DNA of 32,000 nt from Opitutales bacterium (GTDB lineage Bacteria > Verrucomicrobiota > Verrucomicrobiia > Opitutales > Coraliomargaritaceae): positions 60,001 to 92,000 of the forward strand of contig JBMYVL010000006.1 of assembly GCA_049606355.1 (NCBI GenBank), in the 5' to 3' direction. A program made the position numbers and the translations under genes. Shown piece by piece: positions 29,056-29,467 of the stretch (positions within the stretch are counted from its first letter, which is position 1; each line of letters begins with the position of its first letter). The notes under the pieces are model-generated. The model searched no databases and was not told the DNA's origin. It saw nothing but the letters and a program-made list of their open reading frames with translations.

Positions 29056-29083
29056 GCTCACGACACCTCAAAACCTCTAACCT

Positions 29084-29461
29084 ATGTCATTTTCATACGC
29101 ACAACGTAGCTTAAAGCTGGTAAGCCTGCTGATCCTGGGAGCAGTGCTTAGCGGTAGCGTTGGCGCGTCGGAAAATCGACCCTCGTTCGTCAAGGAAACG
29201 ATCTACAGCCCGAATGCGGCCCCAGTCGCCAAGGTCGTCCCCTCGCTCAGTGCAGATATCGTCCTTTTGGACGGTGGGCTTGAGCAAGGGTTGCGCCATG
29301 GCATGGTGTGCACACTCAATCGCGGTTTCCAAACGATCGGCGAACTCATTATTATTGAATCCAGAAGCGACCGTTCCGCAGGGCTGATCCTTGAACGTGT
29401 CGAAGATGCAACTATCCAAGCGGGGGACATCGCTCGCGTTAAGACAATTCAAACTAGCTGA
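29084..29461 (+). CDS. Hypothetical small exported protein (125 aa) embedded in the S10 operon
   Basis: The ORF fills almost the whole rpsS-rplV gap (28 nt before, 6 nt after). The N-terminus has a basic n-region (QRSLK), a hydrophobic core LVSLLILGAVLSG and a small-residue site VGA|SE, which is a Sec signal peptide of the SPase I type with no lipobox Cys. By hand count the third codon positions are moderately G/C-biased, like the neighbouring genes. I recognise no family. Confidence 0.6.
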   Translation: MSFSYAQRSLKLVSLLILGAVLSGSVGASENRPSFVKETIYSPNAAPVAKVVPSLSADIVLLDGGLEQGLRHGMVCTLNRGFQTIGELIIIESRSDRSAGLILERVEDATIQAGDIARVKTIQTS

Positions 29462-29467
29462 ACTACC

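Follow-up and report, generated by a model that had tools for sequence, protein, structure and literature searches.

Few prokaryotic gene orders are as well conserved as S19-L22-S3, and in Escherichia coli K-12 the first two of these genes, rpsS and rplV, are 14 nt apart. In a 32,000-nt stretch of DNA from an Opitutales bacterium (GenBank assembly GCA_049606355.1, contig JBMYVL010000006.1, positions 60,001 to 92,000 of the forward strand; hereafter the window), the same spacer measures 412 nt (29056..29467), and its sole occupant is one 125-amino-acid open reading frame with an ATG start (ORF125, 29084..29461), which begins 28 nt past the rpsS stop and ends 6 nt short of the rplV ATG. This raises the question of whether the spacer holds a gene and, if so, what it encodes and why it lies inside the S10 operon. 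Our analysis indicates that what looks like a gap is a real gene, passed on vertically with the S10 operon in much of Verrucomicrobiota, so that an extra gene for a predicted exported protein has been kept within this highly conserved gene order over deep time. The gap and its reading frame had been pointed out in a first-pass annotation made from the sequence alone, and both the coordinates and the identity of the flanking genes (by Pfam) were confirmed. The features of the locus are as follows.

28789..29055, + strand: rpsS (uS19), 88 amino acids, upstream neighbour (Pfam Ribosomal_S19, E = 1.1e-36; open reading frame list)
29056..29083, + strand: spacer between rpsS and ORF125, 28 nt, with no Shine-Dalgarno-like motif in its sequence
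29084..29461, + strand: ORF125, the inserted gene, 125 amino acids plus stop, short form of an undescribed family (homologues; ratio of nonsynonymous to synonymous substitution rates, dN/dS; family hidden Markov model, HMM; codon usage)
29084..29167, + strand: predicted Sec signal peptide, residues 1-28 (MSFSYAQRSLK-LVSLLILGAVL-SGSVGA), with predicted cleavage after VGA28 (heuristic, conservation)
29168..29215, + strand: N-terminal segment of the mature part, residues 29-44, motif P33-x-F35-V36-x-E38 (conserved columns)
29216..29440, + strand: predicted six-stranded beta-barrel domain, residues 45-119 (AlphaFold2, AF2, model; homology to the C-terminal domain of the long form)
29462..29467, + strand: spacer between the ORF125 stop and the rplV ATG, 6 nt, candidate termination-reinitiation junction (conserved gap)
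29468..29803, + strand: rplV (uL22), 111 amino acids, downstream neighbour (Pfam Ribosomal_L22, E = 1.1e-35)

Evidence that ORF125 is a gene

A word-indexed protein search returned 305 homologues of ORF125 (E ≤ 1e-3), all of which are 98-127 amino acids long, and every organism-bearing name among them is Coraliomargarita, Puniceicoccaceae, Opitutales or Opitutae. By exhaustive phmmer search of 1.84 billion representatives, 222 family clusters at 50% identity were obtained. Among 63 sequences (the window and 62 related loci), the interval between rpsS and rplV is filled by an intact reading frame of 122-191 amino acids in every case (63/63). The NG86 dN/dS of the family is 0.195 over 676 pairs, with values of 0.136 for residues 29-125 and 0.49 for residues 1-28, while the flanking rpsS and rplV give 0.04. 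These comparisons indicate that ORF125 is under purifying selection, and the earlier suggestion of a real and conserved reading frame was thereby upheld.

Codon usage gives a similar picture. ORF125 scores +0.088 log-likelihood units per codon for the translation-gene set, which falls within the range of the translation genes in the window (-0.01 to 0.23) and beyond that of its ordinary genes (those at 1-9.4 kb, -0.115 to 0.007). The family HMM matches ORF125 with E = 1.2e-40, and no second copy was found with it in the window. Furthermore, the identity of ORF125 tracks the identity of S19+L22+S3 among the related loci (Spearman 0.78 over 2080 pairs), and therefore the gene appears to have been inherited with the operon rather than repeatedly inserted.

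It might be supposed that the reading frame is spurious and that the 412 nt are a non-coding spacer or a regulatory RNA, since no Shine-Dalgarno sequence precedes it and neither Pfam nor NCBIfam places the window protein in a family, even with the cut-off relaxed to E ≤ 1. We consider the chance of this negligible: dN/dS is about 0.2, no relative has a broken frame, coevolution yields a confident fold (see below), no Rfam match occurs in the S10 region, and Shine-Dalgarno sequences are missing before all genes of the operon. The reading as a non-coding spacer or RNA element was rejected, on the dN/dS of 0.195 and the missing Rfam match.

The exact ORF125 sequence was found in a 90%-identity cluster that is represented by, and consists mostly of, 111-amino-acid L22 proteins, and the cluster of a 127-amino-acid homologue (P0332) likewise contains 110-amino-acid members. 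Because ORF125 and L22 are unrelated in sequence, the mixed membership looks artefactual; gene calls fused across the 5-6-nt junction may have bridged the two proteins.

A single site and a patchy distribution

In six-frame translations of all sequences collected, the family HMM matched 97 loci, one frame in each, and no second family copy was found in any of the 97. Both rpsS and rplV are present in 88 of these loci, and the family gene invariably sits between them; the remaining nine have it directly upstream of rplV. This placement is seen in the complete genome of Coraliomargarita algicola, in an Opitutales metagenome-assembled genome (MAG), in 58 species-representative genomes (including Thalassobacterium, Lentimonas and two distant soil MAGs with 33-35% identity), and in seven divergent representatives whose aligned identity to the window sequence is 31-43%. 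All detectable members of the family, the long form described below included, are encoded at this one site. The L2 identity among the carriers is as low as ~61-73%.

A further 80 metagenome loci were gathered by an L22-alignment scan, their L22 proteins being 42-69% identical to that of the window. Among the 67 that have both genes, 49 show a gap without any family member (48 gaps of 1-160 nt, and one of 360 nt that holds no reading frame) and two carry short forms; overall, the insert is absent from 54 of the 80 sampled loci. In the locus with the 360-nt gap (L151), S19 ends at 445 and L22 starts at 806, with no reading frame of at least 50 amino acids and no family match in between, and two other loci (L130 and L134) have S19-L22 gaps of 138-160 nt. 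These three gaps could be decayed remnants of the insert or an unrelated non-coding element. In a groundwater lineage (L064/L065), the short-form reading frame (3001..3375) begins 2 nt after the rpsS stop and is followed by ~100-130 nt before rplV (L22 was called at 3505, and the tblastn match starts at 3472), which is the reverse of the spacing in the window's clade.

In a neighbour-joining tree of S19+L22, built from about 195 residues and indicative only, the carriers all fall in one large clade. The tree suggests one old gain, followed by a split into long and short forms and by some losses. Beyond the carriers, the insert is absent in E. coli and in Planctopirus limnophila, where the rplV/rpsS pair has adjacent locus tags (Plim_0481 and Plim_0482; PMC12283558). 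As a rare genomic change with two forms and apparent losses, the insert may serve as a marker for the phylogeny of Verrucomicrobiota.

The insert, together with an Opitutales-type S10 operon, was also met on contigs filed as MAGs of 'Polaribacter sp.' and 'Zhongshania aliphaticivorans' (L042 and L050), and one homologue (P0408) is filed under 'Pseudomonadota bacterium'. All three are probably mis-binned contigs.

A longer form with a coiled coil

In fifteen of the metagenome loci the gap between rpsS and rplV is 754-1015 nt and is filled by one reading frame of 238-298 amino acids, and a distant locus (L126, L22 42% identical) has an intermediate frame of 159 amino acids at the site. The long form is laid out as a signal peptide, a coiled coil of ~150 residues and a C-terminal barrel. 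Its barrel is homologous to the short form (hhalign probability 98.2%, E = 3.4e-14, 79 columns), while its coiled coil has only weak matches of SMC, EnvC and tetherin type. The Opitutales short form looks like a relative of the long form that has no coiled coil. The short gene had been foreseen from the window sequence, but neither the long coiled-coil form nor the patchy distribution had been.

The top PDB sequence match of the long-form profile is the coiled coil of EnvC (8tzk_E, E = 0.076). EnvC-type regulators, like the long form, combine a signal peptide, a coiled coil and a globular C-terminal domain. However, the match amounts to generic coiled-coil similarity; the C-terminal domain of EnvC-type regulators is LytM, whereas that of the long form is a small barrel without FtsEX context.

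Predicted export of the product

The N-terminus of the window protein has an n-region with R8 and K11, a hydrophobic core of 11 residues (L12-L22) and a candidate cleavage site at V26-G27-A28|S29. Signal peptides were called by a heuristic of our own (a positive n-region, a core of 7-15 residues and small residues at -3/-1), under which the window protein has a Sec signal for signal peptidase I. Among 141 family representatives, a hydrophobic N-terminal segment is present in 129, a net-positive n-region in 118 and an AXA-like site in all (141/141). The Sec-type N-terminus that the first-pass annotation had proposed is thus shared by most of the family. The sequence of the signal peptide varies while the feature itself is conserved, and the mature part is strongly conserved; longer members have linkers rich in Pro, Ala and Glu behind the hydrophobic segment. 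We infer export through Sec, with cleavage after VGA28. A lipoprotein was rejected, since the signal peptide of the window protein has no Cys and a lipobox-like motif occurs in only 10 of the 141 representatives.

The main alternative on topology is that the segment stays uncleaved and serves as a signal anchor, as it does in MreC; the product would then be a bitopic inner-membrane protein holding its barrel in the periplasm, not a soluble periplasmic protein. MreC, the closest architectural analogue, has a membrane anchor, residues 4-23 form one helix in the AF2 model, the hydrophobic segment and c-region together span ~17 residues, and the few lipobox-like motifs suggest membrane attachment in some lineages. 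Against an anchor, the core is short (~11 residues) with a small-residue AXA-type site (VGA|S) behind it, an AXA-like site occurs in every representative, and the dN/dS of the segment (0.49, against 0.14 for the rest) is typical of cleaved signal peptides. We hold an anchor to be possible but rather unlikely, perhaps one chance among four, and favour export with cleavage.

The mature part is acidic, with an isoelectric point of 5.3 (family median 5.24), compared with 10.5 for S19 and 10.7 for L22. A ribosomal protein was rejected on this difference, on the signal peptide and on the absence of any match to a ribosomal protein family. The related idea of a lineage-specific cytoplasmic ribosomal protein or assembly factor, whose N-terminus would not be a targeting signal, draws on the site in the S10 operon, the small beta-barrel fold (small barrels are common in ribosomal proteins), the codon usage resembling that of ribosomal protein genes and the possible essentiality of the gene. 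It is very improbable in view of the conserved hydrophobic N-terminus with its positive n-region, the isoelectric point of 5.3 against values above 10, and the 150-residue coiled coil in long forms; KOW was matched in only one of the 141 members (E = 0.019), and OB-type families in one to three members each (E = 0.01-0.065).

The barrel domain and its resemblance to MreC, FlgT and TsaP

The precursor of 125 amino acids would leave a mature part of ~95 residues, the core of which is modelled by AF2 as a single six-stranded beta-barrel (strands at 45-52, 59-62, 75-80, 83-93, 98-105 and 116-119) preceded by an N-terminal helix. With an alignment of 141 diverse representatives, the predicted local distance difference test (pLDDT) score was 89.9 overall and 96-98 over residues 40-120, while with 25 close relatives it was 45.7. 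Forty columns are invariant among the 25 close relatives, including P33, F35, V36 and E38 as well as the pairs G64-G65, G73-M74, G86-E87 and G114-D115, and PxF is the majority in the 141-sequence alignment. The barrel carries the motif aD-V-L-GG---G-R-GM-C-V-R ... GE--II ... AgLIL ... GD-ar-KT. Family-wide, only glycines, D58, L101 and I102 are invariant or near-invariant, a pattern that suits a structural or binding module and not an enzyme.

The top Foldseek match in the PDB is MreC (7eft, E = 3.9e-3), with further MreC structures (2j5u and 2qf4) also among the matches. FlgT (3w1e) was matched with E = 1.2e-2 and a query-normalised TM-score of 0.44 over the 125-residue query including the signal peptide, and the LPHT ring (8z5n) with E of about 1.2e-2; other matches are the C-terminal barrel of alanine racemase and the N-terminal barrels of F-/V-ATPase subunits. 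By profile search, TsaP scores best among PDB sequences against the barrel (E ~0.4). The commonest weak NCBIfam match is the MreC model NF010518, in 17 of the 141 members, with a best E of 5.3e-5 and in each case at model positions ~133-188, and PF04085 (MreC) was found in one of the 141 (E = 0.022). The commonest weak Pfam match is FlgT_C (PF16538), in seven of the 141 short-form members (best E = 0.0059); in long forms it reached E = 9.3e-4 at best, with 20.0, 17.5 and 14.2 bits in L102, L080 and L110 (gathering score 27). UniRef names a C. sinensis homologue 'Flagellar assembly protein T C-terminal domain-containing protein'. The window protein itself has no FlgT_C match, and none to an MreC model (PF04085, TIGR00219, NF010518 or NF010520) at E ≤ 1. 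The first-pass annotation had likened the mature part to the small barrels of MreC and FlgT; this stands at the level of the fold and of the commonest weak profiles, and no family threshold was reached. From the models and alignments, the barrel is predicted to share the fold class and a local D-x-V-x-L-x-x-G-x-x-x-G motif with the barrels of MreC, FlgT-C and TsaP.

MreC is extracytoplasmic, as is predicted for the family, and like it has an N-terminal hydrophobic helix followed by small beta-barrel structure; its barrel begins with the same motif (D-x-V-x-L/I-D-x-G-x-x-x-G-h-x-x-G), and it has a coiled coil between anchor and barrel, as the long form does. However, MreC has two tandem barrels and the family one, the short form has no coiled coil, and the MreC gene stands in an mreB-mreC(-mreD) cluster whereas the family gene is inside the S10 operon. 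Verrucomicrobium spinosum has a separate essential mreC (VSP_RS17760) adjoining mreB (VSP_RS17765), and therefore canonical MreC is not what the rpsS-rplV insert encodes. That candidate was rejected, on this separate mreC and on scores below the cut-offs. The barrels of FlgT-C and TsaP (PDB 3w1e, 8z5n, 6ve2 and 3jc8) are periplasmic, as is predicted for that of the family, and like it six-stranded and of similar size, but the N and M domains of FlgT and the LysM domain of TsaP are absent from the single-domain short form, and no flagellar or pilus genes were found near ORF125 in the window.

A true but highly diverged MreC paralogue, acting on a class B penicillin-binding protein and stripped down in the short form, would explain why MreC is the top structural match, why NF010518 is the commonest NCBIfam match and always covers the same model region, and why the match in L126 extends over coiled coil and barrel, in keeping with the long-form architecture. 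We regard it as unlikely. The MreC models score about 13-20 bits against curated cut-offs of 343-385 (NF010518 gave ~13-14 bits in singly scanned members, cut-off 385), the hhalign probabilities against E. coli MreC are 1.7% and 3.9%, the family has a single barrel where MreC has two and lies outside any mreB/mreD context, a distinct mreC exists in V. spinosum, and FlgT_C and TsaP match about equally well.

A locus scored as essential in Verrucomicrobium spinosum

In V. spinosum, rplV and rpsS have the locus tags VSP_RS22555 and VSP_RS22565, which places VSP_RS22560 between them (supplements of PMC12283558). In the transposon-directed insertion-site sequencing (TraDIS) library of that study, which averages one insertion per 12 bp, VSP_RS22560 has an insertion index of 0.00127389 and is classed as essential (PMC12283558). 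This index equals 1/785 and gives a gene of about 786 bp, or 261 amino acids, which is the size of the long form, and the same arithmetic gives plausible lengths for rpsS (3/278) and rplV (6/389). VSP_RS22560 is likely a member of the family. If so, the only TraDIS data set for Verrucomicrobium had already scored the gene as essential, without comment, and the family would be a candidate essential envelope factor in a phylum with little-known cell biology.

Transcription and translational coupling

Promoter-like sites number one in 25000..32000, against 4.6 expected from shuffled sequence, and terminator-like sites nine against 8.2, and a consensus scan found neither kind of site in either spacer of ORF125. 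The earlier observation that neither promoter nor terminator lies on either side of the frame was thus reproduced. ORF125 has the features of a member of the S10 operon, being on the same strand, with spacers of 28 and 6 nt and no excess of such sites. In the relatives, the spacer between rpsS and the frame is 7-66 nt long and not conserved in sequence. Most of the 63 relatives have 5 nt between the stop and rplV, and this junction (...AAAACAGCTGAatctcATGCAGGTC) is strongly conserved.

A Shine-Dalgarno-like purine run is absent before all genes of the S10 operon, both in the window and in the relatives (L001-L063), and the operon's spacers are pyrimidine- and A-rich. Initiation independent of Shine-Dalgarno sequences is suggested for the window's clade.

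Why the gene lies in the S10 operon

The barrels of MreC, FlgT and TsaP are non-catalytic modules that dock onto peptidoglycan synthases or envelope-spanning rings. By analogy, the working model that we favour makes the product an envelope scaffold, synthesised in step with ribosomes. ORF125 would be co-transcribed in the S10 polycistron and translated, as its neighbours, without a Shine-Dalgarno sequence; termination 5-6 nt before the rplV ATG with reinitiation there would probably couple rplV translation to it. The product would be exported via Sec and cleaved after VGA28, its periplasmic barrel would act as a non-catalytic protein-binding or scaffold module, and its place in the S10 operon would tie its synthesis to that of ribosomes, so that supply scales with growth rate.

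In its fullest form, this model holds that the family is an essential, mini-MreC-like envelope scaffold wide in Verrucomicrobiota (signal peptide or anchor, optional coiled coil, one barrel), hard-wired into the S10 operon so that envelope and peptidoglycan growth is dosed by ribosome output, that rplV translation depends on it, and that co-translational export could hold the S10 mRNA at the membrane. Taken together, these claims are speculative, and we would expect the whole to be right in no more than a small minority of cases. If true, they would reveal an unrecognised structural link from ribosome synthesis to the growth of the cell envelope. The locus is in any event a natural test case for an operon position that ties envelope growth to ribosome synthesis, and because genetic tools exist in V. 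spinosum the hypothesis is directly testable.

Several results weigh against the scaffold model. No Foldseek match to the PDB was found at E ≤ 1e-3, the match to MreC comes partly from the common helix-then-barrel layout (root-mean-square deviation 16.8 Å), the hhalign comparison with E. coli MreC was not significant, and the similarity to MreC, FlgT_C and TsaP is below family thresholds throughout; therefore the scaffold function is an analogy and not a transfer based on homology. The signal peptide was assigned by our own heuristic, and transcription, translation, export and cleavage in the organism of the window are inferences. VSP_RS22560 was placed in the family from position and size only, and its essentiality may be a polar effect on rplV, rpsC and downstream genes. 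The distance from stop to rplV is 11-37 nt in some distant members, and therefore tight coupling is not universal. Finally, several groups without the insert nest within the carrier clade in the S19+L22 tree; loss or relocation of the insert is therefore possible, and an indispensable position becomes less plausible.

The main alternative on the question of why the gene is here is a frozen accident: a functional envelope protein whose gene arrived at this site a single time in an ancestor, whose position has nothing to do with ribosomes or growth rate, and which stays there only since excision or relocation would disturb expression of the essential downstream genes. The protein is acidic and predicted to be exported and has no ribosome-like features, the nested groups without it point to dispensability at this site, and in Gammaproteobacteria and Bacilli insertions into the operon cluster have been tolerated and later lost (PMC8046335). 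On the other side are the very deep retention (L2 identity of carriers down to the values given above), the absence of any member seen elsewhere, the conserved rplV junction and a codon usage adapted as in highly expressed genes. We give such an accident a serious though lesser chance, of roughly one in three.

Relation to known passengers of ribosomal protein operons

secY, adk and map (also infA) are non-ribosomal passengers of the spc operon, which is adjacent to S10, and rpoA is one of the alpha operon. The first-pass annotation had spoken of a new kind of passenger; what holds is that the S10 operon contains an undescribed gene, but the wording was overstated, since secY, adk and map are already classic passengers. 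Like these, ORF125 is a non-ribosomal gene stably embedded and presumably co-transcribed, and SecY illustrates that a membrane-targeted product is compatible with a ribosomal protein operon (secY lies within the spc operon; PMC8046335). It differs from the passengers of spc and alpha in operon (S10) and site (between rpsS and rplV), in being lineage-restricted rather than near-universal, and in encoding a small, predicted exported protein without a known link to translation or secretion. In a survey of Gammaproteobacteria and Bacilli, insertions were mostly between operons, and one of the four examined closely, nrdHEF, was inside rpoBC (PMC8046335). Full-text searches of the literature corpus turned up no account of a Verrucomicrobia gene inserted between rpsS and rplV. 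The family, which no Pfam or NCBIfam model covers, is an undescribed protein family defined by its position in the S10 operon, while passengers and the type of fold were already known.

Other features of the window

The S10 operon of the window begins at ~25875 and runs into rplN. It closes an unbroken same-strand run (9710..31873) that comprises tRNA-Thr, tuf, tRNA-Trp, nusG ... fusA and the S10 operon, in which the reading frames between nusG and fusA were assigned as rplKAJL, rpoB, rpoC, rpsL and rpsG by position and size only. This run is an extreme case of operon concatenation, which is discussed in PMC6735719 and PMC8046335. The two tRNAs are the only Rfam matches in the window.

Upstream of this run, two RNase_HII-family genes lie 4 kb apart (3350..4339 and 8666..9415, both + strand), the first of which also has DUF3378 and is RNase HIII-like. 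Between them are an FGE-sulfatase-family gene (4436..5404), a KatG-type catalase-peroxidase gene (6380..8632) and a 251-amino-acid reading frame (5490..6245, + strand) without Pfam match at E ≤ 1e-5. A 127-amino-acid protein with a SET domain (Pfam SET, E = 7e-16), a eukaryote-like methyltransferase domain that is uncommon in bacteria, is encoded at 1813..2196 on the - strand.

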